A stretch of DNA of 32,000 nt from Archaeoglobus fulgidus DSM 4304 (GCF_000008665.1 NC_000917.1:1680001-1712000), one strand, 5' to 3'; shown: positions 1 through 14,355, counted from the first letter of the stretch. Numbers and translations are program-made. The notes: a model not told the origin generated them from the letters alone.

Positions 1-1450
<1,450 letters not shown>

Positions 1451-2221: not shown

Positions 2222-2572
2222 ATGAGTTCTACCATGAGTTTCGACAATTTAGCAAAGGTCCTTGCAGTTCTCGTCGCAGAGCAGGGAAGCTACACCTACG
2301 TTGACAAGCTCGGATACGTGCCCTCTAAGGATTTAGCAGTTTTTTACCTGAAGGAGGCCTTGAGAGACCTCCATTCCATCCAGCAGAAGGAAAAATTTGA
2401 AAATGAGAAGGCCAGAGAACTGGTTGGAAAGATTGACTACGAGAGGGTGGAGAAAGAGCTTGAAGATATAGCCAAAACTGACGAGAGGAAGGAGCTGAGA
2501 GAGAAGACCTCTCTCATCGCTGCTAAGGCTCTTGCCCTCTCAGCAAAATTGGGAGGTGGTAGTGGTGAGTGA
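2222..2572 (+). CDS. csa5: Csa5-like small subunit (Cas11-type) of type I-A Cascade
   Basis: 116-aa, helix-rich, charged protein placed directly upstream of and overlapping cas7, the position Csa5 occupies in I-A operons. The call rests mostly on position and size. The start may be the ATG at 2234. Confidence 0.6.
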   Translation: MSSTMSFDNLAKVLAVLVAEQGSYTYVDKLGYVPSKDLAVFYLKEALRDLHSIQQKEKFENEKARELVGKIDYERVEKELEDIAKTDERKELREKTSLIAAKALALSAKLGGGSGE

Positions 2573-3515
2573 CGTTTTCGTTTCGGTAAGAGGAAGAGTT
2601 ATGCTCAATGTGGAAGCAATGAACATGACTGAGAGCGTTGGAAATTACGTGAAGCACAGAAGAGTGCCCGTAGTTTTGCCTGACGCAAAATACACAACAT
2701 ACTTTGTTCCTGCAATCAGTGGTGAAAGCATTGCCCATGGCTTTCAGGAGGTTCTTGCAGAGGTTGGCAAAAAGAATGGGCTGAAGGTTTGCAAGCTATG
2801 TGAGAAGGGAATTTTCCTTAAGAGCACCAACGAGAACGTTTTCAAGGAGTCCTTCTCATCAGACCCGCCAAAGGACGATTTCGAGTTTGAAAAAACAGTA
2901 ATTGAAAATTGCATTGTTGAGGATGTTGGTGGATTCCTTTACGCTCCCAGAGCAGGTGGAAACGTAAAAAGAACGTCAAACTTCTACACCGGCTACATGA
3001 TTCCCGTAAGGGAGTCCATAGAGGGAGCAGTAATAGAGCCTCAGCTTCACTCAAGGTACGCCCTCGGCACTCCCTTCGTTGAGGGAGGGCAGGGACAGAT
3101 GATTTACTACGTGGAGCTTTCTTCAGCGGTTTACACTTTCAGCTTTGACCTTGATACGAGGTACATTGGAAGGACGACCTTCAGCTATGAAAAAGCTGGG
3201 ACAGAGGTGGGGAAGAGGAGTGAAAGAATTAACGCAGCTCTTGAAGCCCTAAAGAAGTTTCTCATCGAGTTCGCCTTTGGAGCAAAGAAAACGAGGTTTT
3301 TGCCAGTAATGGAATGGGATTCCTTAGTTGTGGCAGTTTCTGACGACGTGTGGACTGTCCCAAGCCCCTACACTGCAGGCTACATAGATAACGCAAGGAA
3401 GAAAAAGGAGAAGGTTAACTTCAACACGAAGCTCTTTGTTTACCCCGAAGGTGGAAGCTTTGAAGAGGTTGTGGTTGAGGCGATTGAGGAGGCGAAGGAG
3501 AGAGCGGGCAAATGA
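2532..3515 (+). CDS. cas7: Cas7 (Csa2), type I-A Cascade backbone RAMP
   Basis: The N-terminus VSVRGRVMLNVEAMNMTESVGNYVKHRRVP is the Csa2 family signature. The ORF-track start is a TTG. A GTG at 2562/2565 preceded by GGAGG (2551-2555) is the more likely start. Confidence 0.9.
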   Translation: MPSQQNWEVVVVSDVFVSVRGRVMLNVEAMNMTESVGNYVKHRRVPVVLPDAKYTTYFVPAISGESIAHGFQEVLAEVGKKNGLKVCKLCEKGIFLKSTNENVFKESFSSDPPKDDFEFEKTVIENCIVEDVGGFLYAPRAGGNVKRTSNFYTGYMIPVRESIEGAVIEPQLHSRYALGTPFVEGGQGQMIYYVELSSAVYTFSFDLDTRYIGRTTFSYEKAGTEVGKRSERINAALEALKKFLIEFAFGAKKTRFLPVMEWDSLVVAVSDDVWTVPSPYTAGYIDNARKKKEKVNFNTKLFVYPEGGSFEEVVVEAIEEAKERAGK

Positions 3516-4312
3516 TTGGCTATCTCGTTGATGTTGAATTCGTCTGGGGATTTCAGGCGAGGATTGCTGGGCTGTCAAAGACTTCCCCATCCTTTTACTA
3601 TCCCCCTCCAACAACCTTTCTCGGTGCAGTTGCAGAGGCTATTGCAAAGGATAAGGGCATTGGAGAGCAGAGGGGAAAGGAGATAATTTCGGAGCTCGGA
3701 GAGAATCTGCTTGCCATAGGCTGGAAGGCTTTAAACTGCACTCCCCTGAGGTATTCAGATATTAACAGGATTCTCGCTGTCAAAATCACTTCAGGTGTTC
3801 TTTACCCCAATCCCCAAGACCTTGCAAAGTCCTTCGACTCCCCCGCAAGAGGGAAAACCATCTTATCCTCGCTAAACGATGAGGCTCCAAAAATAAGATG
3901 GTTCCTCGTATTCAAAGAGGAAGCAGTAGAGGAGAAAATCCTGTGGAAAATACACAGAATCGGCTCGAAGGAGAGCAGAGTGGCGGTTGTGGACGTCAAA
4001 AAGGTGAAGGTCACGCAGAAGGATGGTCTTATTTCAACAGATTACAGCTTTCCCGCAGAGGACGGTGTGGAACTCAGGGGAATCCTGAGCCAGAGATGGG
4101 AGTTTGAGGTTTATCTGAATCCTTTTGAGGTGAAGTATTCAGAGAAGGAAAACCCCCTAATGAGCTACATCTCTGGGAAGAAGGCGGTGCTCTACAGAAT
4201 TCCCATTATGACCTCCATATTTTCAACGCCCGAATGTTTGGTAGAGGTGGGGGGCGACTTCAAAGCCTACGAGGCTGGCGGAGAGGTGGTGATTGGTAGA
4301 TGCTCAAAGTGA
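3512..4312 (+). CDS. cas5: Cas5a (type I-A Cas5 RAMP)
   Basis: 266 aa. Motif GLSKTSPSFYYPPPTTFLGAVAEAI is typical of Cas5a. It shares an ATGA overlap with cas7. Confidence 0.85.
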   Translation: MIGYLVDVEFVWGFQARIAGLSKTSPSFYYPPPTTFLGAVAEAIAKDKGIGEQRGKEIISELGENLLAIGWKALNCTPLRYSDINRILAVKITSGVLYPNPQDLAKSFDSPARGKTILSSLNDEAPKIRWFLVFKEEAVEEKILWKIHRIGSKESRVAVVDVKKVKVTQKDGLISTDYSFPAEDGVELRGILSQRWEFEVYLNPFEVKYSEKENPLMSYISGKKAVLYRIPIMTSIFSTPECLVEVGGDFKAYEAGGEVVIGRCSK

Positions 4313-5472
4313 AACTCTCGCTGCCTCCAGACTCGACCTTTTTAAGCCAACTGATTTACGAAAGCCTTCTTTACCTCTCTGGAAAAAAGCTTGCAAAGTT
4401 TGAAAACGGAGAGCTCTTGATTGAATCCATTTCAAAGGCTCTTGAAACTTTTGATGATGAAAGAGTGGGCGAAATTCGGATTGTAATGTCTGGAAATGAT
4501 AACATTAACGCCAAAATCTTCGAAACTTTTGGGATAGGTGGGGTAAAAAGCAGAAAAACCTACTACGACCTCATCGCTTTACTTAAGGAGCACAGGGATA
4601 AAATCTCCACCAAAGATGAGTCGGAAATCCATCTCAATATAAAGGGAAAAGACGTTTTCATGGATATAAACAGCAAATCCGACGGTATTGCGGCACCACA
4701 ACTCCTCAAAGTTGACAGATACACCGGCTTCTCCTCCCTCGACACCCCCTACACCTCTCAGCAGCTAACCTTTTACCTCTCAAAGGAGGTTGCTCTCCTC
4801 GCGCTGCTGGGAATCTACTCCTCTTTCGTGACCAACGTCAGGCAGCAACAGCAGAGCTACTACTACTTCCTTTTCTTCTCCCCGGAAGAGGTTGCAGGGC
4901 TGCTAAACAGTCCATCCTTAGCTGAGAAGTTTTTCTTGGTAAAAGAGAGCGTAAGGGAGAGCCTGCGAGAGCTTTTAAGGAGGACAACGTTTAACGAGCT
5001 TTTGCTGATTGAGACAACTCTAAACCTTGAGCTGCAGAGGCTCATGGAGACAGAAAATCTGGATAAGATCTCTTTGACACTTTTCAAGATTGCCCACGAA
5101 GGTCAAACTTACAAGATTTACGAGCAAATACCCATAACAGTTTACAGAAATCCAGCTTTTTACGAAACAGCCAAAAAGTACTTCAGAGACCCGTTAAAAT
5201 TCTCTGAGAAGTTGCGAAAAGCCATTACACAGGGAGTAATTCCCTCAGCCCTTGCAATTCTAAGCACCAAAAACAAGTACAGCGAGGCTGACAACATTCT
5301 AAAAGCAATCCAGATGCTCTACAGGTTCGTGGTTCTTGGCGACCTGCAGGGATGGTTTGGTTTTTTGAGGGAGCTCAACAATGCACACTCGAAGCTCAAG
5401 AACAGCAGTGACGGAAGGGAGAAGAAAAGGGCAGGTCAGTATCTCAACATTGTGAAAGAGGTAGCATGGTAA
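4300..5472 (+). CDS. cas8a: Cas8a-like large subunit of type I-A Cascade (assignment by position)
   Basis: 390-aa ORF, translationally coupled on both sides (13-nt overlap with cas5, 7-nt overlap with cas3'). I recognise no catalytic or metal-binding motifs, and cysteine appears to be absent. It occupies the large-subunit slot. Confidence 0.5.
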   Translation: MLKVKLSLPPDSTFLSQLIYESLLYLSGKKLAKFENGELLIESISKALETFDDERVGEIRIVMSGNDNINAKIFETFGIGGVKSRKTYYDLIALLKEHRDKISTKDESEIHLNIKGKDVFMDINSKSDGIAAPQLLKVDRYTGFSSLDTPYTSQQLTFYLSKEVALLALLGIYSSFVTNVRQQQQSYYYFLFFSPEEVAGLLNSPSLAEKFFLVKESVRESLRELLRRTTFNELLLIETTLNLELQRLMETENLDKISLTLFKIAHEGQTYKIYEQIPITVYRNPAFYETAKKYFRDPLKFSEKLRKAITQGVIPSALAILSTKNKYSEADNILKAIQMLYRFVVLGDLQGWFGFLRELNNAHSKLKNSSDGREKKRAGQYLNIVKEVAW

Positions 5473-7106
5473 CGCTATCCGAAATCTACGGGGAGATTGT
5501 GGAAAAATGGTTTGGAGGCAGAGACGAAAGACCCTTCATCGCCAACGCCATCAGAGAAATTGAAAAAAACTGGGACAGGAACATCTTCGTCATAGAAGCT
5601 CCAACAGGCTACGGAAAGTCCACGATTTCTGCCACTATTGCTGCATACTCTTTACAAGAGGAGCTTAAATCAATAATAGCTTTCCCGCTCAGAACGCTCC
5701 TTGAGGACCAGTATAACAAGTTTAAGGGCCTGTTTGGCAACAAATTAGGAAAGAGGTACATGCACAACCCCGACTCCCCTTACCTGATTAAGCCCGTCAC
5801 CCTAACAACCATCGACACCCTTGCCCTGACACTCTTCGGCATTCCTCCAGAAGACCTTGATAAGGCGGTAAAATACTGGGATGGCACATCTTCGGGCTCT
5901 CTCGGCCATTATCTTTTTTCTCAGGCCTCGGTGGCTTTATCCAACATCGTTCTTGATGAGGTGCATCTTCTCGCAGACTCAACCAAATCTCTCAATTTCC
6001 TCTTTGCCCTCATGCATGCTGCGATTGATAATGACCAGAAGCTCGTCCTGATGTCCGCAACAATACCCGAAGCGCTAAAGAAAAGAATAAAGGAGTTTAA
6101 TCCCGATGTGTGTATGGTAGAGTTTAATGAGTCGTTCGACAGAAAATTCGTTGAAGAAAGAAGAAAGAAAAAATACCGTATTAATTTGATTGCTCTGGCA
6201 TCGGTTGAGAAGTTTGGAAGTCTGGAGAGGATCCTGCTGGAAGGATCGAAGAAGTTCTCAAAAATCACAGTGGTTTTTAACACAATTGGCGATGCTGTTT
6301 ACTTTTACAACAATATAAAGGAAAAGATTCCCGAGTTTAAAAAGCTCCTCCTTCATTCAAGATTCAGCGAAATGGATAGGGAGAAAAAGGCTGAGCTGCT
6401 CGCAGAGATGAAAAAATCGGAAAAATTTGTAATCGTGACAACTCAGGTGATAGAGGCGGGAGTGGACATCTCATCCAACTTATTCATAACAGAAATTGCT
6501 CCTGCCAGCTCTTTAATCCAGCGCCTCGGAAGATTTCTGAGGTATGGGGAAAGGGAGGGGGAAGTTTACATCTGGTATGAGGTGGATGACAGAGGAGAGC
6601 TTGCTCGCTGGAAAGATGACAGGTACAAGGTTTACGACTACAGTCTTACCGCTCTAACGCTTGAAAAACTCGCAGAGATGAAAAACTTCAGCGTGCACGT
6701 TGATTACGACAGATTGCTTGACGTGTATGGGGAATTTGAGGTTGACGAAAGGGGCGTGAATGATTTGAGAAGGATACTGATGAACTTCGAAAACATCAAT
6801 TCAGCGGTTGAAAAATTCTTTGAGCTGGAAGGTAGCTTCGTCAGAGACTCGTTTATAATACCAGTAGTTCCTTACAGCGTTATTGAGGAAAAAAGAAGGT
6901 CCTCGAAGGTTCCAGTATCCTTTGAAACTTTCAAGAACTTCAAGGTTTATGGCTGCATAGTTTCAGATGAATTCGTTAGCGCTGAAAAGTTAAAATGCAA
7001 TCTCAGCTCCCCCAAAGCCCTTCTCAGAGACATGATTAGGAAGTCAATAGCCGCATTTGTTGTTGACGGAGATTATGACAGCGAGATGGGGCTGGTGAAA
7101 AGATGA
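5466..7106 (+). CDS. cas3: Cas3' (SF2 helicase part of split Cas3)
   Basis: Motif I EAPTGYGKST, motif II LDEVH, motif III MSAT, motif VI QRLGRFLR. Confidence 0.9.
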   Translation: MVTLSEIYGEIVEKWFGGRDERPFIANAIREIEKNWDRNIFVIEAPTGYGKSTISATIAAYSLQEELKSIIAFPLRTLLEDQYNKFKGLFGNKLGKRYMHNPDSPYLIKPVTLTTIDTLALTLFGIPPEDLDKAVKYWDGTSSGSLGHYLFSQASVALSNIVLDEVHLLADSTKSLNFLFALMHAAIDNDQKLVLMSATIPEALKKRIKEFNPDVCMVEFNESFDRKFVEERRKKKYRINLIALASVEKFGSLERILLEGSKKFSKITVVFNTIGDAVYFYNNIKEKIPEFKKLLLHSRFSEMDREKKAELLAEMKKSEKFVIVTTQVIEAGVDISSNLFITEIAPASSLIQRLGRFLRYGEREGEVYIWYEVDDRGELARWKDDRYKVYDYSLTALTLEKLAEMKNFSVHVDYDRLLDVYGEFEVDERGVNDLRRILMNFENINSAVEKFFELEGSFVRDSFIIPVVPYSVIEEKRRSSKVPVSFETFKNFKVYGCIVSDEFVSAEKLKCNLSSPKALLRDMIRKSIAAFVVDGDYDSEMGLVKR

Positions 7107-7828
7107 GGATATACAGCTTCTACAATGAGAATGCCAGAAGGGAGACGCTTGAGGAGCATGTAGCTACTGCCCTCAAACTGCTGGACTCGGCAGAGAACTC
7201 AAAGCTGGTAAAATACGGAAAAAAGCTAAGCCCCGAATTTGAGAGGGCGGTGAAGCTTGCCATTATTTTCCACGATACGGGGAAGGTTTTCTTTCAGATT
7301 AAAAAGGGATATGGATACATGAGCTTCAGAGGGCATGAGTATTTCTCCACCTACATTTTCGACGTTTTCGCCCGCAGATTAATCAAAAGCGAAATTGAGA
7401 ACTACGAAGCTCTTTCTGAACTCAGAAAAATCTGCAATTTTTCAATCTTCTTCCATCACCACGCTATGAACATTCGGATGAGGGAGCCAGAGGCAGGAAG
7501 TAACATAAAAGCAGGGTTAAAGCTTCTCGATGTTCTCTACAGCGAAGTTAAGCGTTTTCTGGAGGATAAAGAGAAGAAAGCTTTGAAGGCGGCTTTGGAG
7601 GAAGTAAAAGAAAAAGGAACCGCAAATTTAACAGGATACGTTAAAGGCGAAATAGTAAGAGAGGTGTGGAGAAATGCGATGGACAGCAGCAAATTGAAGA
7701 GGCTTTGCTACCTGAACCTTCTCGTTTTAATCGCCGCAGATTACAGCTCAGCAGCTTTGAACAGAGGAGGTAACAAAACACCCTTCGGAAGAGTGGTGGA
7801 GGAGTTCAGCGAGTTCTATTTAAAGTAG
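7103..7828 (+). CDS. cas3: Cas3'' (HD nuclease part of split Cas3)
   Basis: HD-domain motifs EEH, IIFHDTGK, RGHEY and FFHHHA. It shares an ATGA overlap with cas3'. Confidence 0.85.
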   Translation: MRIYSFYNENARRETLEEHVATALKLLDSAENSKLVKYGKKLSPEFERAVKLAIIFHDTGKVFFQIKKGYGYMSFRGHEYFSTYIFDVFARRLIKSEIENYEALSELRKICNFSIFFHHHAMNIRMREPEAGSNIKAGLKLLDVLYSEVKRFLEDKEKKALKAALEEVKEKGTANLTGYVKGEIVREVWRNAMDSSKLKRLCYLNLLVLIAADYSSAALNRGGNKTPFGRVVEEFSEFYLK

Positions 7829-7835: not shown

Positions 7836-7857
7836 AACCTCTGCTTATAATTAAGCT

Positions 7858-8142
7858 ATGCTCCACCTCGTCGTTTACGACATAAGCGATGATGGCAGTA
7901 GGGCAAGGCTGGCAAAGCTCCTCGAAAAGTTTGGATTGCAGAGGGTGCAGTATTCAGCCTTCCGTGGAGAGCTGAATCCCAACGACAGAGAGGTTCTGGC
8001 GAGGCAGGTGGGAAAATTTGTGAGGGATGATAGGGACTGCATCTTCATCATCCCTCTCTGCCAGCGCTGCTCCTCCACCGCAATTGTAATCAGCAACACG
8101 GGAGTTGAGCTTGTAAAGGAGAAGGGAGTGGAGTTCGTTTAA
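7858..8142 (+). CDS. cas2: Cas2
   Basis: 94 aa. MLHLVVYDISDD... is the beta1 strand with the catalytic Asp. RVQYSAFRGEL is typical of the Cas2 ferredoxin fold. Confidence 0.9.
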   Translation: MLHLVVYDISDDGSRARLAKLLEKFGLQRVQYSAFRGELNPNDREVLARQVGKFVRDDRDCIFIIPLCQRCSSTAIVISNTGVELVKEKGVEFV

Positions 8143-8163
8143 TGGCTCACAACTCCCAAGCAG

Positions 8164-8733
8164 CTAAACGCAGAACTCCCTAACTTCGCAGTAACCGCAC
8201 TTTTTCGATTTGGACGTTCTGGGATACTTTTCTTCCTCAATCAGCCTCTCTATTTCCTTTATTATCCTTAAAAGTGCTTTCCTGTCATCAGGAGATATGC
8301 TGACCTCCACAAATTTTCCCTGATTGAGAAGAAAGAGATAACCCTTCCTCACCTCAACTGCGTAGTTCTCCTCAACAAGCAGGGCGTAGGCAGTTAGCTG
8401 CATCTTCCATGCGTAGGTGATGGACTGAAATCTCGTCAGCTTCACGTCAACGGGAAAGGCCCCTCCATCAACAATCACAAGAGCGTCGAGCACACCCTTC
8501 AGCCCATATCTTTTGCTCTCAAGATAAACCGACGTTAAAAGCTCTCCTTTCAACTTTCTGGCAAAGCTCCTCAGCTTTCCCCTCGCCTCTTCCTGCGCAG
8601 CCTTTCCCTCCTCCATTTTCGGCTTAGAAATCCTTATCCCTGCTATTTTTAAAAAATAAAGCTTCCTCGGGCAATAAAGATACTGAACTATGTCGCTAAC
8701 ATCCATTTTACCACTTCTGAACAAACCCCTCAT
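8164..8733 (-). CDS. cas4: Cas4 (RecB-like nuclease with Fe-S cysteines)
   Basis: N-terminal YCPRKLYF, DxK-type motif PVDVK, and C-terminal CGYCEVREFC. An alternative ATG at 8706 (MDVSDIV...) lies 1 nt after the cas1 stop. Confidence 0.9.
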   Translation of the reverse strand: MRGLFRSGKMDVSDIVQYLYCPRKLYFLKIAGIRISKPKMEEGKAAQEEARGKLRSFARKLKGELLTSVYLESKRYGLKGVLDALVIVDGGAFPVDVKLTRFQSITYAWKMQLTAYALLVEENYAVEVRKGYLFLLNQGKFVEVSISPDDRKALLRIIKEIERLIEEEKYPRTSKSKKCGYCEVREFCV

Positions 8734-9751
8734 ACCTCCTCTCTCCTCTTAGAAAAGCAACAACATCTCTGGCGTGCAGGAGGATAATGGAGGAGTATGC
8801 AAGGTTTCTACCCCTGTATTGCGTTTTTGAGTCCAATCTTTCAAGCAGACTTGCTAATAGAAGTCTCCTCGCATTATCGCTCAGCTGGCAGACCATATTT
8901 CTCTTCTCGCAGTCCTCGGGCTTAATCTGCCTGTAAGAAATGAGCCTCAGCACCACTCTGTCAACAACCTGCTGCCTGAAGTTCTCCATTAAGTCTATGG
9001 CGAGGGAGCTTCTTCCTGAGACGTCCACATGAAGAAAACCTGCATAAGGATCAAGACCCGCAAGCTCAACAGCCTTGACACATTCGGCAAGCAGTATAGA
9101 ATAGCCGTAGTTGAGCATAGCGTTCACAATATCCTTGGCATATCTCGGACTTCCGATTTCAATCCCTCTCCTTCCGTTAAACCGATACTCCTCCGGAATA
9201 ACGAGAGATATAGCATCCCAGTAATGTTTCGAAGCTTTACCCTCAATTCCGAGCAATCTTTCCCTCACTTTGTCGATCATCTCTGCCTCCACGCCATCCA
9301 GTTCGTTCAGACAAGCATCTATTTCCTTCTTAGCCTTCAGGAGCGATTCAGCTACTTCCGGATTCGAATCTTTCCTTGCCTTAGCAAGATTTGTAAGAAT
9401 GGCCATTTGGTTGGCCATCTTTGCTTTGATGAACTCCTTCGCCAGATGAACTCCTCTTTTATCGCCGTATGCAAGATACTGCTCTCTTCTCGTTTTTGCT
9501 GTGCCAATCAGAGGATGGCTCAGCCTTCCGAGAATTTCGCCATTGAAATCGAGAAAAACCACGTCCACTCGATTTTTGAGCAATAGCTTGATAGCATCGC
9601 TGCTTATTGCTGCTTTCCCGATAATCAGAACCTGCTTCAGGTCCTCAGGTCTGACTTTCCTCAATGCCTTGCCCTTCTCCTTAACGACAATCAGCCCGTT
9701 TTCAATTCCAAGATACTTTCCAAAGCCATCGACAACGAGCCTCATAGGCAA
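8708..9751 (-). CDS. cas1: Cas1 integrase
   Basis: 347 aa. Conserved blocks NAMLNYGYSIL, GFLH and AIDLMENFR. Confidence 0.95.
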   Translation of the reverse strand: MPMRLVVDGFGKYLGIENGLIVVKEKGKALRKVRPEDLKQVLIIGKAAISSDAIKLLLKNRVDVVFLDFNGEILGRLSHPLIGTAKTRREQYLAYGDKRGVHLAKEFIKAKMANQMAILTNLAKARKDSNPEVAESLLKAKKEIDACLNELDGVEAEMIDKVRERLLGIEGKASKHYWDAISLVIPEEYRFNGRRGIEIGSPRYAKDIVNAMLNYGYSILLAECVKAVELAGLDPYAGFLHVDVSGRSSLAIDLMENFRQQVVDRVVLRLISYRQIKPEDCEKRNMVCQLSDNARRLLLASLLERLDSKTQYRGRNLAYSSIILLHARDVVAFLRGERRYEGFVQKW

Positions 9752-10587
9752 AAGGCATTAAACAGGCAGTTACTGCTGCAGCTCTTCGCCACTCCCGGAT
9801 CAGCCTCATTAAAAACGATTTCAGCCTTTCTGTCCCTCTCCTCAATCCACCAGCTTCTCAGATTTGCGTCGATGTAATGGAGGTCCTTGCTGACTCTCAT
9901 TCTCTCACCGTTGAATGTGATGGAGATTATACAGCCCACATCAACAGGAATCTCGTGAATGCTTTCGAGAACGAGAGCGTAGCCGGTGGTGTAGAGCCTC
10001 ATTTCTTCATTGAACTCCCCAACTTTCAAATCGAAAACGACGTTTCTGAGATAGTCGTAGCAATCAACTGATATCAGCCCGCTGCAGCCGAGAAGGGAGC
10101 CATCCATTCTGTGCTCAACGAGAAAAGGCATGGACGTGAGAAGAACGCCCTCTTCGGTGGCGTAGGGTTGTTCAGACCTGACCTTGAGGTAGGATGATTG
10201 GCACAGGGACATGGTGTATTCCCATACTGCTTTAACTGCAACATTAATCATCTCGTTATCGTAATTCGGAGGCTCTGCAGAGAAATTCTTACTCTTCGCC
10301 TCTCTTATAGCTTTTGCAACAGCTTCGTGAATGGCTTTACCGAGAGAAACAGGAAAGCTCTCCTCTCCCCTCACCTTCTCAACCATTGTGAGATAAACAT
10401 CCCTCGACGTAGGGCAGTATCTGCTGCAGATGAGGTACATGGGGAGCTTAACATTGTAGTAGGGCTTGAGCGGAGGAGAATGCCAGTTCCACCCTCTGAG
10501 CTCCTCAGGAACGGGATTCTGCCTGATTCTTGGCCTTAGCTCAAGGGTGAGAAACTTATGCTCCAGCTCGTTAAGAAAGTAAACCAT
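9742..10587 (-). CDS. csa1: Csa1 (Cas4-family paralog of type I-A adaptation modules)
   Basis: 281 aa. RecB-like FDLKVGE motif, N-terminal Cys (CSRYCPTSRD) and C-terminal CSSNCLFNAFC cluster. It overlaps the cas1 start by 10 nt and sits next to the leader. Confidence 0.8.
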   Translation of the reverse strand: MVYFLNELEHKFLTLELRPRIRQNPVPEELRGWNWHSPPLKPYYNVKLPMYLICSRYCPTSRDVYLTMVEKVRGEESFPVSLGKAIHEAVAKAIREAKSKNFSAEPPNYDNEMINVAVKAVWEYTMSLCQSSYLKVRSEQPYATEEGVLLTSMPFLVEHRMDGSLLGCSGLISVDCYDYLRNVVFDLKVGEFNEEMRLYTTGYALVLESIHEIPVDVGCIISITFNGERMRVSKDLHYIDANLRSWWIEERDRKAEIVFNEADPGVAKSCSSNCLFNAFCL

Positions 10588-10609
10588 GAATTAATTAGGC
10601 ATAGCCATA

Positions 10610-10620
10610 CTTATAGTTTT
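10610..10620 (-). promoter_or_regulatory. Candidate TATA box for the csa1-cas1-cas4 operon
   Basis: The minus strand reads AAAACTATAAG, centred ~27 nt upstream of the csa1 ATG (10587). This is leaderless geometry. Confidence 0.35.
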
Positions 10621-10683
10621 CCACACGATACAAAGGAAGTGATGCCCGAATAGTTTAAGATTTAAACTAATTATTTTTTGATT

Positions 10684-10721
10684 GTCAAGAAAGTCCAAAA
10701 TGAATGGAGGGATTTCGTGAG
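10684..10721 (+). repeat. Degenerate CRISPR-repeat-like relic inside the leader
   Basis: GTCAAGAAAGTCCAAAATGAATGGAGGGATTTCGTGAG is 38 nt. It shares GT.AAGAAAG, TCC, AAAATG, GGAG and the TCGTGAG ending with the array repeat. TCGTGAG is otherwise found only in the terminal degenerate repeat. Confidence 0.5.
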
Positions 10722-11393
10722 TTTTGATAGAGAATGGAAAGTTTTGGGTGGTGAAAAATTGTGGGTTAGTTTTAAGAATTGGCTGTTGGGTTAACGAAGC
10801 TATCCTATTCCGCAAACTGCTCCGGCATCCCTTTATAAATACAGTGTTAGTTTTGAGGTATGCTGCAATGGGCGGGAGAAGGGGGCAGTTAACTTTAAAT
10901 ATTAGGTGAATGGAGGGATTTTAGGGAGGGTAAGAAAGGGAGGCTCCTGAAAATGGAGATTGAAAGCTATTCTCCAAATAAAATTATATAACGCATTAAC
11001 ATCAATAAGAAAGGGAGGCTCCTGAAAATGGAGATTGAAAGCAGGAGGGACCGGAAACACACGGTTGAAGGGGAACGCGTAAGAAAGGGAGGCTCCTGAA
11101 AATGGAGATTGAAAGTCTATAACTCCTATACGGTCAACATTGTAACCTGGGTTGTAAGAAAGGGAGGCTCCTGAAAATGGAGATTGAAAGTCTCGCTTGC
11201 CCTGATGAAATCGGATGGCTTTGCGTCCAGTAAGAAAGGGAGGCTCCTGAAAATGGAGATTGAAAGATCTTTTGCACTTCCTCCTTAACCTTCTTAATCT
11301 CCGTAAGAAAGGGAGGCTCCTGAAAATGGAGATTGAAAGGCTCTGCAGGGCCAGGGTAAGACAATTGCTGACATAATTGTAAGAAAGGGAGGC

Positions 11394-11431
11394 TCCTGAA
11401 AATGGAGATTGAAAGCTTCAGGTAACCCCTG
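11394..11431 (+). repeat. Copy 1 of an exact 38-nt direct duplication (22 nt of repeat 3' part + 16 nt of spacer)
   Basis: TCCTGAAAATGGAGATTGAAAGCTTCAGGTAACCCCTG is identical to 11469-11506. The flanking bases differ on both sides. Confidence 0.95.
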
Positions 11432-11468
11432 AACTAAGACCTACTCGGACAGGATTAAGCTGCCGTAT

Positions 11469-11506
11469 TCCTGAAAATGGAGATTGAAAGCTTCAGGTAA
11501 CCCCTG
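11469..11506 (+). repeat. Copy 2 of the exact 38-nt direct duplication
   Basis: Same 38-mer, 75 nt downstream of copy 1. The two copies bracket a unique 37-nt segment (11432-11468). Confidence 0.95.
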
Positions 11507-14355
11507 CACAATTTCGGCCTTTTTCTGTAAGAAAGGGAGGCTCCTGAAAATGGAGATTGAAAGGTCTAACAGGCACAGGAGAACACATTGCACCCTTGCA
11601 AGTAAGAAAGGGAGGCTCCTGAAAATGGAGATTGAAAGCCTTCAATATCACTGTCCAGTTTCTTGAAGCACACTGGGGTAAGAAAGGGAGGCTCCTGAAA
11701 ATGGAGATTGAAAGATGTCAACATGTTCATGCCTGCTTCAAAGCCGGATTTGGGTAAGAAAGGGAGGCTCCTGAAAATGGAGATTGAAAGTTTGGACTAT
11801 TTCGCCGCAATCTGCACAGACTACTTCGTAAGAAAGGGAGGCTCCTGAAAATGGAGATTGAAAGGTCTCGCTCAGGTCGGTTAAGGCATCGTTCATCTCC
11901 TAAGAAAGGGAGGCTCCTGAAAATGGAGATTGAAAGAACGTCGTGCTGAACTTAGGAATAGTGATGTCCAACTATCTGTAAGAAAGGGAGGCTCCTGAAA
12001 ATGGAGATTGAAAGGAAATCGCTGTATTCATTTGGTTTTTTGAATTGGAAAGTAAGAAAGGGAGGCTCCTGAAAATGGAGATTGAAAGAAATCTACACCG
12101 TTTATTTTAACCGCCTTCATAACAAGTAAGAAAGGGAGGCTCCTGAAAATGGAGATTGAAAGCAAGCTGTTCTGGTGGCAACGATGCGAGTAAATTCTGT
12201 AAGAAAGGGAGGCTCCTGAAAATGGAGATTGAAAGATATACTCCTTACCCCCTATCTTCTTGCTTGAAATTGCGTAAGAAAGGGAGGCTCCTGAAAATGG
12301 AGATTGAAAGTCATCCTCTCGTACAGCGTCCTCGTTGAAATGCCGAGAGTAAGAAAGGGAGGCTCCTGAAAATGGAGATTGAAAGTCCCTCTCCCCACTC
12401 TCCATATCCTCGATAACGCTGAGGTAAGAAAGGGAGGCTCCTGAAAATGGAGATTGAAAGATTATCAGAGGTGTTGTAATCAAGGACGAGGAGCTGGATG
12501 TAAGAAAGGGAGGCTCCTGAAAATGGAGATTGAAAGATATCAGCTCTTTTGTGAACTCATCCGTATAGTATGTGTAAGAAAGGGAGGCTCCTGAAAATGG
12601 AGATTGAAAGAATATCTGATTTATCAGGGCGATGCTTATCTCGGAGAAGTAAGAAAGGGAGGCTCCTGAAAATGGAGATTGAAAGAACTGATACCACAAC
12701 TGGTGCACCAACTGAGGTTGCCGCGTAAGAAAGGGAGGCTCCTGAAAATGGAGATTGAAAGCAGTAAACATTGACGGCCAAATTTATCAGGGAGACGTGT
12801 AAGAAAGGGAGGCTCCTGAAAATGGAGATTGAAAGATAAATTCCTGATACATATTATTTGAATCAGAACCCACGTAAGAAAGGGAGGCTCCTGAAAATGG
12901 AGATTGAAAGATTTTATCTGCATCTCCACACTACCTCTGCAGGAAGCTGTAAGAAAGGGAGGCTCCTGAAAATGGAGATTGAAAGCAATAATCTCATCAT
13001 TGCCTGGAATTTCCGAAGTTAGGGGTAAGAAAGGGAGGCTCCTGAAAATGGAGATTGAAAGTGCAGCCACCAAGTTTGGTGACTTGGCAACCATCTTGTA
13101 AGAAAGGGAGGCTCCTGAAAATGGAGATTGAAAGGATACATGCAAAATATCTTGAGTGAGGTGGTTTGATGGGTAAGAAAGGGAGGCTCCTGAAAATGGA
13201 GATTGAAAGAATGCATCAGATTCATACTCAAGAACCTTCTTAACAAGTAAGAAAGGGAGGCTCCTGAAAATGGAGATTGAAAGATATTTTCGTATCCTTG
13301 AGAGTATCAGCGATCGATTCGGTAAGAAAGGGAGGCTCCTGAAAATGGAGATTGAAAGTCATATCACCTGATGAAATTCATCCTTTTCCTTTAGTAAGAA
13401 AGGGAGGCTCCTGAAAATGGAGATTGAAAGAATCACGACCCATTCATATCACCTCTTCTCCAAACCAAGTAAGAAAGGGAGGCTCCTGAAAATGGAGATT
13501 GAAAGTAAATGCTTTCTCACTTCCCTCTTTCTCATATATCTCTGTAAGAAAGGGAGGCTCCTGAAAATGGAGATTGAAAGGAGCTATCAGCAGATGGGCG
13601 AGAGTTTAGGCGGCTTGTAAGAAAGGGAGGCTCCTGAAAATGGAGATTGAAAGTGCAAAATAGGGGTGGTAGTAATGCGGTATAATTTCAGCGTAAGAAA
13701 GGGAGGCTCCTGAAAATGGAGATTGAAAGATGCAAAAGAGAAGTTCGGGTAGTGGTAGTGGGGAAGGGTAAGAAAGGGAGGCTCCTGAAAATGGAGATTG
13801 AAAGGTTGCTTGGCCTGCCATCTGAGTCATATGCCCCATCCGTAAGAAAGGGAGGCTCCTGAAAATGGAGATTGAAAGATGTCGTTGAACTGGGCTTGGA
13901 TTTCTCTTATAATCGGGTAAGAAAGGGAGGCTCCTGAAAATGGAGATTGAAAGCCCTCGAAGCGGGCCTGCTGCTTGAACCTTACGGTTGTGTAAGAAAG
14001 GGAGGCTCCTGAAAATGGAGATTGAAAGACTGCAGGGGTGTGGACACAAGTGGACCGCAACAGAGGTGTAAGAAAGGGAGGCTCCTGAAAATGGAGATTG
14101 AAAGCAAGTCTTCGATTTCGCCTGCGACTTGTTCAACATCCTCTGTAAGAATGGAAGTCTCCTGAAAATGGAGATCGTGAGAACTTCATAAAACAGCACC
14201 ATTCCATGTATCCTAAATAGTAAATGCTACACGGGCTACCGGAAAGGCGTTTTGAGCGGTTGTGGTGAGAATTCTGCATCACACCTGTAAAAACTTCAAC
14301 AGCGGGCAGTGCTGTGCCCTAACTGAAAATACATGAAGTTTAAAATTATCAGGAA

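Follow-up and report, generated by a model that had tools for sequence, protein, structure and literature searches.

During normal spacer acquisition the CRISPR integrase attacks the 5′ border of a repeat on one strand and the repeat–spacer border on the other, and experiments have established that Cas1-Cas2 measures out one repeat length between its two attacks, also when these fall at wrong sites. Integration errors of this kind are so far known mainly from experiments; to our knowledge fixed natural examples are scarce, and those that have been described are either small (1–2 nt) or located outside arrays. For E. coli, part of the work of Nivala et al. (2018) reportedly describes the formation of “neo-CRISPRs” in vivo by off-target integration. 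In vitro, Cas1-Cas2 of P. furiosus produces paired off-target integrations that lie 30–31 bp apart, i.e. at repeat length, with G/C preferred at the attacked sites (Grainy et al. 2019, PMC6698737). Shifts of register are also on record: where PMC4872114 cites the pairing of non-cognate Cas proteins and arrays in E. coli, it gives a −2 shift with constant duplication length, and in the type I-B system of H. hispanica the mid-repeat motifs AACCC/GTGGG position the cuts (Wang et al. 2016, PMC4872114; for register shifts and motif-anchored rulers see also Goren et al. 2016, PMC5039180). Finally, ectopic acquisition within arrays has been described for CRISPR1 and CRISPR3 of S. thermophilus and for S. 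mutans (PMC7999890, PMC5338259, PMC8265633).

Here we analyse an irregular unit in a type I-A array of Archaeoglobus fulgidus (hereafter, “the window” denotes the whole 32,000-nucleotide stretch of DNA analysed), which would be a rare natural example of such an error. Like off-target Cas1-Cas2 integration, the unit combines spacer-sized DNA at a non-canonical site with a repeat-sized target duplication, and the attacked bases can be read as C and C. Unlike the off-target products of P. furiosus and the neo-CRISPRs of E. coli, the site lies inside a functional array, across a repeat–spacer border and not elsewhere on a plasmid or chromosome, and is a fixed natural allele of an archaeal type I-A system rather than a product detected by deep sequencing; unlike in neo-CRISPR formation, no new array was made, and one unit of an existing array was damaged instead. 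With the shifts seen in E. coli and H. hispanica it would share a misplaced first cut and a duplication length that is nevertheless kept, mid-repeat motifs being thought to dock the integrase. Those shifts, however, measure 1–3 nt and come about through mutation or non-cognate proteins, whereas here the displacement would amount to 15–16 nt in a wild-type array with cognate genes. As in ectopic acquisition, the spacer may have entered at a repeat that was not leader-proximal, leaving a record of imperfect site choice, but ectopic events are in register with full repeats on both sides, whereas here a truncated repeat and a chimeric spacer are found.

The array and its irregular unit

Assignment of the locus to type I-A CRISPR-Cas is based on the regular repeats, on the adjoining signature genes (csa1, cas1, cas2, cas4, csa2/cas7, cas5, cas3′ and cas3″) and on turnover at the leader end combined with a conserved trailer (Table 1). 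Pfam matches were obtained for Csa1 (1e-111), Cas1 (1e-82) and Cas4 (4e-32), and none for the putative cas8a. The call of cas2 comes from the homologous loci (L001–L010), in which the gene is located between cas4 and cas3″ and the gene order also takes in csa3; the Csa1 sequence is the same as that of A. fulgidus proteins AAB89380.1 and AIG98877.1. The terminal repeat of the array is degenerate, with 6 mismatches, which places the leader on the left and transcription of the array on the + strand. Comparison between strains backs this polarity: the degenerate last repeat and trailer spacers 40–42 are common to the window and to loci L001 and L002, and the leader-side spacers differ. The array is active and polar, since its leader-side spacers vary even between strains that are more than 99.7% identical.

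Table 1. Coordinates of the CRISPR-Cas features and of the elements of the irregular unit, counted from the first nucleotide of the window.
Feature	Coordinates	Strand	Description
Type I-A interference genes	2532..7828	+	csa2/cas7, cas5, putative cas8a, cas3′ helicase, cas3″ HD (Pfam)
Adaptation genes	7850..10587	-	csa1 9742-10587, cas1 8708-9751, cas4 8164-8733, cas2; adjoin the leader
CRISPR leader	10588..10929	+	Between the csa1 start (10587) and the first repeat
CRISPR array, type I-A	10930..14181	+	43 full 37-nt repeats GTAAGAAAGGGAGGCTCCTGAAAATGGAGATTGAAAG and one 5′-truncated repeat
Repeat 7	11379..11415	+	Intact and perfect; its 3′ 22 nt open duplication copy 1
Duplication copy 1	11394..11431	+	Repeat positions 16-37 (22 nt) and the first 16 nt of the original spacer, CTTCAGGTAACCCCTG
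Insert	11432..11468	+	AACTAAGACCTACTCGGACAGGATTAAGCTGCCGTAT, 37 nt; putative mis-integrated spacer, possibly 38 nt if one junction base is included
5′-truncated repeat	11469..11490	+	Positions 16-37 only; ATTGAAAG tag kept
Putative original spacer Y	11491..11526	+	36 nt, CTTCAGGTAACCCCTG followed by CACAATTTCGGCCTTTTTCT; length in the normal range
Repeat 8	11527..11563	+	Full repeat, intact and perfect

Repeats 7 and 8 are separated by 111 nt, whereas all 41 other spacers of the array measure 35–41 nt (mode 38; modal unit length 75 nt). An earlier note on this DNA had described a 38-mer (TCCTGAAAATGGAGATTGAAAGCTTCAGGTAACCCCTG) that occurs twice in this interval, consists of 22 nt of repeat and 16 nt of spacer, and is bordered by different bases on the outside; exact matching confirms this description. 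The two identical copies, the second of which occupies 11469–11506, are the only ones in the window. The base before the 38-mer is C at copy 1 and T at copy 2, and the base after it is A and C, respectively, so the maximal duplication is exactly 38 nt. Between the copies lies a 37-nt segment that was said to be unique, and indeed no other copy is present in the window even when up to three mismatches are allowed (GC content 0.46, against an array mean of 0.45). From the start of copy 1 to the start of copy 2 there are 75 nt, the same as the modal unit, in agreement with the period given before.

Copy 2 opens with the truncated repeat. The 15 nt that stand in place of repeat positions 1–15 have 3/15 identities to the repeat, which is chance level, and no intermediates were found, as expected from the claim that this stretch is dissimilar to the repeat and not the outcome of mutational decay. 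Decay was likewise rejected on the grounds that the same unit is identical in a separate record (L003, see below) and missing from other arrays, and no stepwise-decayed version of a full repeat was found in related arrays. The truncated repeat had also been said to keep its tag and to lose one base of the CTCC/GGAG hairpin: the tag is retained, and T replaces C15, such that the 4-bp hairpin of the normal repeat is folded with 3 bp. The first 16 nt of Y (11491–11506) belong to duplication copy 2, and two spacer intervals therefore open alike. The chance probability of this 16-nt identity is ~2e-10, and the longest block otherwise common to two of the array's spacers measures 11 nt.

The structure is present as described in two independent records. 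One is the window and the other a JGI metagenome contig, Ga0169454_100418 (L003), which matches the window at 99.995% identity over 20 kb. The contig carries the same structure; a homopolymer indel in spacer 37 sets it apart from the window and recurs in an ENA contig (L035). Its occurrence in a separate record argues against an artefact of one assembly.

Off-register integration as the probable origin

The unit is best explained by one full-site Cas1-Cas2 integration in which both staggered cuts were placed ~15–16 nt downstream of their normal positions, an event that is unproven but that we regard as probable. Before it, the array would have read repeat 7 – Y – repeat 8, with Y being CTTCAGGTAACCCCTGCACAATTTCGGCCTTTTTCT. 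The first attack would have occurred within the repeat, after position 15 or 16, and the attack on the other strand within spacer Y, again after position 15 or 16, with the cut-to-cut distance, and hence the length of the duplication, held at repeat length. Gap repair would then have copied the 37–38 bp between the cuts, comprising the last 21–22 nt of the repeat and the first 15–16 nt of Y, and the duplicated block would have come to flank the new 37–38-nt spacer, presumably of foreign origin, on both sides. The upstream repeat would have been restored intact, enabling later acquisitions to go on normally, and the downstream copy would have been left without repeat positions 1–15. A single event of this kind would explain why 15 nt of the repeat are missing, the identity of the 16-nt spacer starts, the normal register downstream and the intact repeat 7.

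The lengths involved agree with this reading. The earlier note had pointed to a repeat-sized duplication around a spacer-sized insert, and an exact direct duplication of 38 (or 37) bp does directly flank an insert of 37 (or 38) nt; with a repeat of 37 nt and spacers of 35–41 nt, one normal integration yields a duplication and an insert of such lengths. The complete adaptation module that adjoins the leader (csa1, cas1, cas4 and cas2) provides supporting context. The offsets had been given as +15 and +16, of which a shift of ~15–16 nt stands, and the exact values can be read in more than one way, within 1 nt. If the duplication was in truth 37 bp long, one base at one of the two junctions would match by coincidence with a probability of ~44%, and such a match would imply an exact 37-bp duplication, a 38-nt insert and a shift of +15/+15 or +16/+16. 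In its 37-bp version the duplicated block has C as its first base and G as its last, which would place both attacks at a C, consistent with the G/C preference reported for P. furiosus. Apart from the terminal repeat, the other repeat variants of the array differ only at repeat position 1 (repeats 2 and 13), exactly what 1-nt slips of the leader-side cut would yield.

Two related processes were rejected. Canonical in-register acquisition, whether leader-proximal or ectopic, does not fit a downstream copy that lacks positions 1–15 or a duplication that takes in 16 nt of spacer, and neo-CRISPR formation or other off-target integration outside arrays does not fit a target that lies inside an array, between repeats 7 and 8.

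All structural predictions of the off-register integration proposed in the earlier note thus hold, whereas the searches for the pre-insertion allele and for a protospacer came back empty. The internal junction of Y (GGTAACCCCTG|CACAATTTCGG) and the chimeric junction (CTTCAGGTAACCCCTG then AACTAAGACC), which were sought together with one degenerate pattern, gave 0 matches in metagenome and viral contigs. Neither three subsequences of the insert (IMG/VR) nor the 3′ part of Y matched viral contigs, BLAST of the 111-nt interval returned nothing from phage or plasmid collections, and BLAST of the whole array returned nothing credible, the sole match (E=1) being to a Staphylococcus phage. Two further spacers were searched for a targeted element and had no credible match; a 19-mer match of one of them, to a virus of 36% GC and without extension, was discarded as chance. 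The pre-insertion allele was not found through exact-protein look-ups of Csa1 and of the ABC-2 permease, which yielded three complete arrays only: in one of them the allele is that of the window, and the remaining two (L001 and L002) have just three trailer spacers in common with it. Most contigs end at the first repeats. A k-mer search for overlapping spacers in the arrays of other strains found chance-level 11-mers only, and the look-up of a spurious 247-aa ORF within the array returned nothing on record.

Further cases were sought with the conserved 3′ portion of the repeat (22 nt) as a probe in contigs from genomes and metagenomes, and the 44 loci recovered contained no other repeat without its 5′ part, nor was there a second truncated repeat among ~850 repeats of this and related families. 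A 112-nt irregular interval in locus L050, considered as a second case, is merely a 1-nt insertion in a repeat.

Alternative explanations

In a one-sided slip, the leader-side cut alone would have moved, to repeat 15|16, with the cut on the spacer side at its canonical place. The outcome would be a 22-bp duplication and a single 53-nt spacer (11416–11468); that this spacer and Y open with an identical 16 nt would then reflect their origin from homologous sites of related elements. The sequence formally allows such a geometry, uncoupling of the two cuts is on record for H. hispanica (PMC4872114), and other spacer pairs of the array have 11-nt blocks in common and then diverge, so related targets do exist. 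These 11-nt blocks are more frequent than chance predicts, meaning that partial spacer identity has a precedent without integration errors, a point that counts against the integration reading. We nevertheless judge a one-sided slip improbable, as three independent oddities are required (a spacer of 53 nt against the usual 35–41, a 22-bp duplication and a common 16-nt prefix) and as it would be a coincidence that 53 − 16 equals 37, a spacer length, that 22 + 16 equals 38, a repeat length, and that the period is 75 nt. No contiguous 53-nt protospacer was found in viral, phage, plasmid or metagenome collections, and no chimeric junction in metagenome and viral contigs.

Recombination or template switching could have acted through CCTG microhomology, or through an array or allele that already held the insert beside a partial repeat. 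The 37-bp block does start and end with CCTG (repeat positions 17–20 and spacer positions 13–16), and CRISPR arrays do recombine, one assembly (L005) having a collapse between repeats. Slippage or unequal crossing-over at CCTG or between repeats, however, would produce a plain tandem duplication or deletion, with no unique 37 nt between the copies. The insert is absent elsewhere in the window and from 65 loci, barring L003 and L034, which are the same JGI contig and the same array, and no other array with the same sequences was present among the fetched loci. A donor of this sort would in any case leave the odd junction to be explained, only at a different locus, and we hold such a history to be improbable as well.

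Third, two normal acquisitions, one of 38 nt and one of 36 nt, whose related targets had their first 16 nt alike, may have been followed by block replacement of the first 15 nt of the intervening repeat, be it by gene conversion, a repair patch or recombination. All elements would then have normal lengths (37-38-37-36-37), and common blocks between spacers are seen elsewhere in the array. Yet we know of no mechanism by which precisely 15 nt of a repeat would give way to an equal number of unrelated nucleotides (3/15 matches), at least two independent rare events would have had to strike one spot, and the common block begins at the first base of the spacers and extends over 16 nt, as opposed to at most 11 nt elsewhere. 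In addition, no repeat family with a 5′ part like ATTAAGCTGCCGTAT occurs in related arrays, and we consider this sequence of events improbable too.

An assembly or sequencing artefact within the repetitive array is scarcely credible, for although mis-assembly is common in arrays (in L005 the last spacer directly follows the leader-proximal repeat), a unique 37-nt sequence would not arise in this way, and the window and L003 are identical here yet are separate records, as the homopolymer indel elsewhere in the array attests.

Placement of the cuts

If the unit did arise by off-register integration, the size of the shift may relate to the internal structure of the repeat. The strongest self-similarity within the repeat is found at offset 16, the same size as the shift, between AAAGGGAG (repeat positions 6–13) and AAATGGAG (positions 22–29), although the signal is modest, with 7/9 matches in a purine-rich repeat and a ~7% chance that the best offset matches the shift. 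Speculatively, the second copy of this mid-repeat motif may have served as the docking site of the integrase, and occasional docking there would displace the entire 37-bp ruler by exactly 16 bp. We regard it as doubtful that the shift was non-random in this sense, with both cuts set from a mid-repeat anchor, AAA(G/T)GGAG, whose two copies lie 16 nt apart, and not from the leader–repeat junction. AAAnGGAG may accordingly be viewed as a candidate anchor for integration in A. fulgidus, and the unit would point to a specific secondary docking site for its Cas1-Cas2; were the anchor reading true, the scar would amount to a natural experiment pinpointing the anchor motif of an archaeal type I-A integrase.

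The leader, whose final 60 nt are identical across L001–L010, resembles the repeat in two places: its 3′ end, AGGGAGG (7 nt, 10923–10929), equals repeat positions 8–14, and AATGGAG at 10909 is similar to positions 23–29. As a cause of the shift, the pseudo-leader motif AGGGAGG predicts an offset of +14, not +15/+16, and was ranked below the offset-16 motif.

Irregular units number 3 in the array of the window as against 0 in 126 units of sister strains (p = 0.015). The variants of repeats 2 and 13, together with the insertion event, might mark a lineage with reduced integration fidelity.

Consequences of the proposed event

The earlier note had presented the locus as a record that the integrase ruler is independent of correct anchoring, which is not new, having already been shown experimentally in P. 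furiosus and E. coli. The unit is thus one unproven case of a phenomenon whose principle is known; what it would add, if true, is a mis-registration of 15–16 bp that persists in a wild archaeal array with cognate genes, with the ruler distance preserved and subsequent acquisitions normal.

For crRNA production, the arrangement of the unit suggests that 16 nt likely separate the new spacer from the 5′ tag of the crRNA. Should cleavage at the truncated repeat still take place, unit 7 would give a chimeric guide that matches neither target, and Y would still be usable; if this repeat is left uncut, both spacers would be lost in one long chimeric crRNA. The unit offers natural material to learn if the variable 5′ 15 nt of the repeat are required by Cas6 or if its conserved 3′ 22 nt suffice. 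Array-parsing software would call the entire unit a 111-nt “spacer”.

Structure of the irregular unit and its locus

The left side of the window, a segment of archaeal chromosome, holds a type I-A CRISPR-Cas locus, and the right side carries an ABC transporter, RNA polymerase subunits, NusA, ribosomal proteins S12 and S7, and EF-2. The window's Csa1 and the A. fulgidus proteins AAB89380.1 and AIG98877.1 have the same sequence, and the region shares 93% identity with CP006577.1, from which the homologous locus L001 derives. The final repeat copy of the array has six mismatches. This degenerate terminal repeat and the last one to three spacers are common to every A. fulgidus-type array examined (the window, L001, L002, L036, L050 and L059), the remaining spacers differ completely, and those at the opposite end vary even where strains exceed 99.7% identity; the trailer is an old, stable end of the array. 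From the degenerate last repeat, the shared trailer spacers and the variable opposite end we therefore place the leader at 10588-10929 and read the array on the + strand. At its 3' end the repeat has ATTGAAAG, the usual archaeal crRNA 5' tag.

Coordinates of features in the window (A, repeat positions 1-15; B, positions 16-37; y1, first 16 nt of spacer Y)
Feature	Position	Strand	Remark
cmr1 gene	461-1450		
Interference genes	2532-7828	+	csa2/cas7, cas5, putative cas8a, cas3', cas3''
Adaptation genes	8164-10587	-	cas4, cas1, csa1
CRISPR array	10930-14181	+	single, between csa1 and transporter; 43 copies of 37-nt repeat
Repeat 2 (R2), position 1	11005		A
Spacer 4	11191-11229		shares 11-mer
Repeat 7 (R7)	11379-11415		
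First 38-mer (B y1)	11394-11431		
Inverted repeat, first copy	11419-11433		CAGG-TAACC-CCTG
Insert I	11432-11468		37 nt
Second 38-mer (B y1)	11469-11506		
Truncated repeat	11469-11490		B
Spacer Y	11491-11526		36 nt, inferred original
Inverted repeat, second copy	11494-11506		
Repeat 8 (R8)	11527-11563		
Repeat 13 (R13), position 1	11900		C
Spacer 32	13359-13393		shares 11-mer
Spacer 33	13431-13468		shares 11-mer
Spacer 37	13730-13767		homopolymer
Conserved trailer	13954-14181		

All elements that the earlier note had described at 11379-11563 are present in the sequence: the 38-mer occurs at two places only, the bases directly outside both copies differ, and no other part of the window matches the intervening 37 nt, even if three mismatches are permitted. 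R7 and R8 are perfect and lie 111 nt apart, against 35-41 nt for all other spacers. The layout is A B y1, I, B y1 y2, A B, where y2 is 20 nt; taking out one B y1 copy together with I leaves a normal unit, R7-Y-R8. The duplication is one nucleotide longer than the 37-nt repeat, the insert has normal spacer length, and the 75-nt period is the modal unit length. The 16 nt of spacer sequence in common, for which the next-longest block between any two spacers is 11 nt, cannot be due to chance. The duplicated part of the spacer contains an inverted repeat whose stem grows to TTCAGG/CCTGAA once joined to the insert; CCTGAA is present also at repeat positions 17-22.

Of the four hairpin base pairs the truncated repeat retains three, along with the 8-nt tag. 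Should Cas6 still cleave it, the guide from unit 7 would be chimeric (y1 with 22 nt of I) and Y would stay functional; if Cas6 requires the 5' 15 nt of the repeat, one long chimeric RNA would result. In either case the mis-placed spacer would probably not work as a guide.

Proposed off-register integration and its alternatives

The observed footprint is what spacer-sized DNA would be expected to leave on joining at staggered nicks, 38 bp from each other, followed by gap filling. Such a single off-register integration is clearly the most economical model, and we consider it likely. It would place the right-hand cut exactly at the 3' border of the spacer inverted repeat and would regenerate the upstream repeat intact; the six normal units upstream are consistent with an intact R7 if the event struck the then-first repeat. 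The shift of +15/+16 proposed in the earlier note is compatible with the sequence but is not the sole option, as one junction base may match by chance (for the insert's final T, or the G that directly follows y1, the probability of such a match at one junction at least is 7/16). If so, the event would have duplicated 37 bp around an insert of 38 nt, 38 nt being the modal spacer length, and the shift would be +16/+16 or +15/+15, beyond which the sequence alone narrows the offsets no further.

A one-sided slip, in which a 22-bp duplication surrounds a 53-nt spacer whose 16 nt in common with its neighbour are fortuitous, requires three oddities whose sizes add up to normal lengths by coincidence. 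Two related adjacent spacers, with exactly 15 nt of the intervening repeat later swapped for unrelated sequence, would draw on the related targets to which the 11-nt blocks common to other spacer pairs attest, but the 15 nt now present show 3/15 identity to the repeat, two rare events are required, and the scenario has no known mechanism. For slippage or recombination, the duplicated block in its 37-bp version has CCTG at either end, but slippage between these copies would yield no unique insert, and I occurs neither in the rest of the window nor in any fetched locus except L003 and L034, two fetches of a contig with the same array. Against an assembly artefact speaks L003 (JGI contig Ga0169454_100418), which carries the identical structure and counts as a separate record because an A3/A4 homopolymer in spacer 37 sets it apart from the window; the structure is not an artefact of one assembly. 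Spacer 37 reads ATGCAAAAGAG in the window and ATGCAAAGAG in both L003 and the ENA contig L035, the sole difference in about 20 kb, which may be a sequencing error in one record.

It is already established that the two attacks keep repeat-length spacing even at wrong sites. Off-target integrations reportedly seeded new arrays in E. coli in the work of Nivala et al. in 2018. Paired off-target integrations by P. furiosus Cas1-Cas2 lie 30-31 bp apart (PMC6698737), and a passage of PMC4872114 cites a -2 register shift in E. coli with non-cognate proteins. Ectopic acquisition in streptococci is in register (PMC7999890, PMC5338259, PMC8265633), whereas the event proposed for A. fulgidus would be out of register. 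New here, provided that the integration model holds, as it probably does, is a fixed, natural register shift of 15-16 bp within a working archaeal type I-A array.

Possible causes of the shift

The strongest internal similarity of the repeat, a unique maximum over all offsets, lies at offset 16, where GAAAGGGAG (positions 5-13) and AAAATGGAG (positions 21-29) are identical at 7/9 positions. [quoted passage not shown] Docking on the second motif copy would displace a 37-bp ruler by exactly 16 bp, giving the +16/+16 version, in which C is the attacked base at both sites, as would suit the G/C preference reported for P. furiosus. This gives a weak statistical hint of mis-anchoring on the motif as the cause, the chance of a coincidental offset being about 7%, and mis-anchoring is a more novel possibility than a plain register shift. 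The last 7 nt of the leader, AGGGAGG (at 10923), recur at repeat positions 8-14 (10937 in repeat 1); as an alternative cause this motif is a faint candidate, predicting +14, a poorer fit than offset 16.

The last ~26 nt of the leader end (10900-10929; GGTGAATGGAGGGATTTTAGGGAGG) resemble a degenerate repeat 3' part fused to repeat positions 8-14. GGAG stands at 10912, 10925, 10939 and 10955, spaced by 13-16 nt, and AATGGAGGGATTT occurs a second time in the leader, about 200 nt farther upstream (near 10704).

With the degenerate terminal repeat set aside, repeats vary only at position 1, in R2 and R13. Both variants fit 1-nt slips of the leader-side cut, with the new spacer's last base replacing G1; two random mutations would both fall at position 1 with p of about 7e-4. 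No position-1 variant occurs in L001 (92 repeats), L002 (36), L052 (28) or L059 (13), and all three irregular units fall in the window array (hypergeometric p = 0.015 against L001 and L002 together).

Related alleles and protospacers

Exact-protein look-ups on both flanks retrieved only three complete arrays: L001 and L002, which share only spacers 40-42 with the window, and L003, with the same allele. A degenerate pattern for the Y junction or the chimeric junction (y1 joined to I) had no match in metagenome contigs, and a look-up through a spurious ORF inside the array had nothing on record. No protospacer was found in viral contigs, nor any match to the 111-nt interval in the phage and plasmid collections; with the whole array as query, BLAST gave no credible target for any spacer, the sole match being a Staphylococcus phage (E=1). 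The findings that the earlier note had named as contrary to its reading were thus not seen in these searches, nor were the confirming ones, a pre-insertion allele or a protospacer. In L005 (Logan SRR11566844_3272, reverse complement 11189-11302) a leader-proximal repeat is fused directly to the window's last spacer and terminal repeat, which most likely reflects a collapse of the array during assembly and not a genuine allele with two repeats.

In four spacer pairs an exact same-strand 11-mer is shared before the sequences diverge, against about 0.3 such pairs expected by chance; spacers 4, 32 and 33, for example, are linked by TCATATCACCT / CCTGATGAAAT, and 5/30 and 22/24 are further pairs. 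This suggests that the targets have a short element in common or are mosaic relatives; the searches gave no target for these spacers.

Recurrence and the modular repeat

A search with the conserved 22-nt B part returned 44 loci (Archaeoglobus, Geoglobus and related MAGs and metagenomes), which with the A. fulgidus arrays amount to roughly 850 repeats. Among these the truncated repeat is the only B copy without its A part, and the event is therefore rare. The 3' 22 nt (TCCTGAAAATGGAGATTGAAAG), being the search pattern and hence biased, are identical in at least ten repeat families (L011-L031 and L042-L064, Archaeoglobus/Geoglobus MAG and metagenome arrays). The 5' 15 nt vary between families save for a shared G.A..AA…C pattern that includes the final C. 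With its conserved 3' part and variable 5' part the repeat is therefore modular, subject to the same bias, and the A/B boundary coincides with the ectopic cut, although the search pattern itself selects for a conserved B. Within one metagenome array (L043, 4636-5015) the 5' part changes midway from GAAGCAAAGCTGAAC to GAAGCAAGGGCGGAC with the 3' 22 nt unchanged; two arrays may have fused, or a repeat variant may have spread from the leader end.
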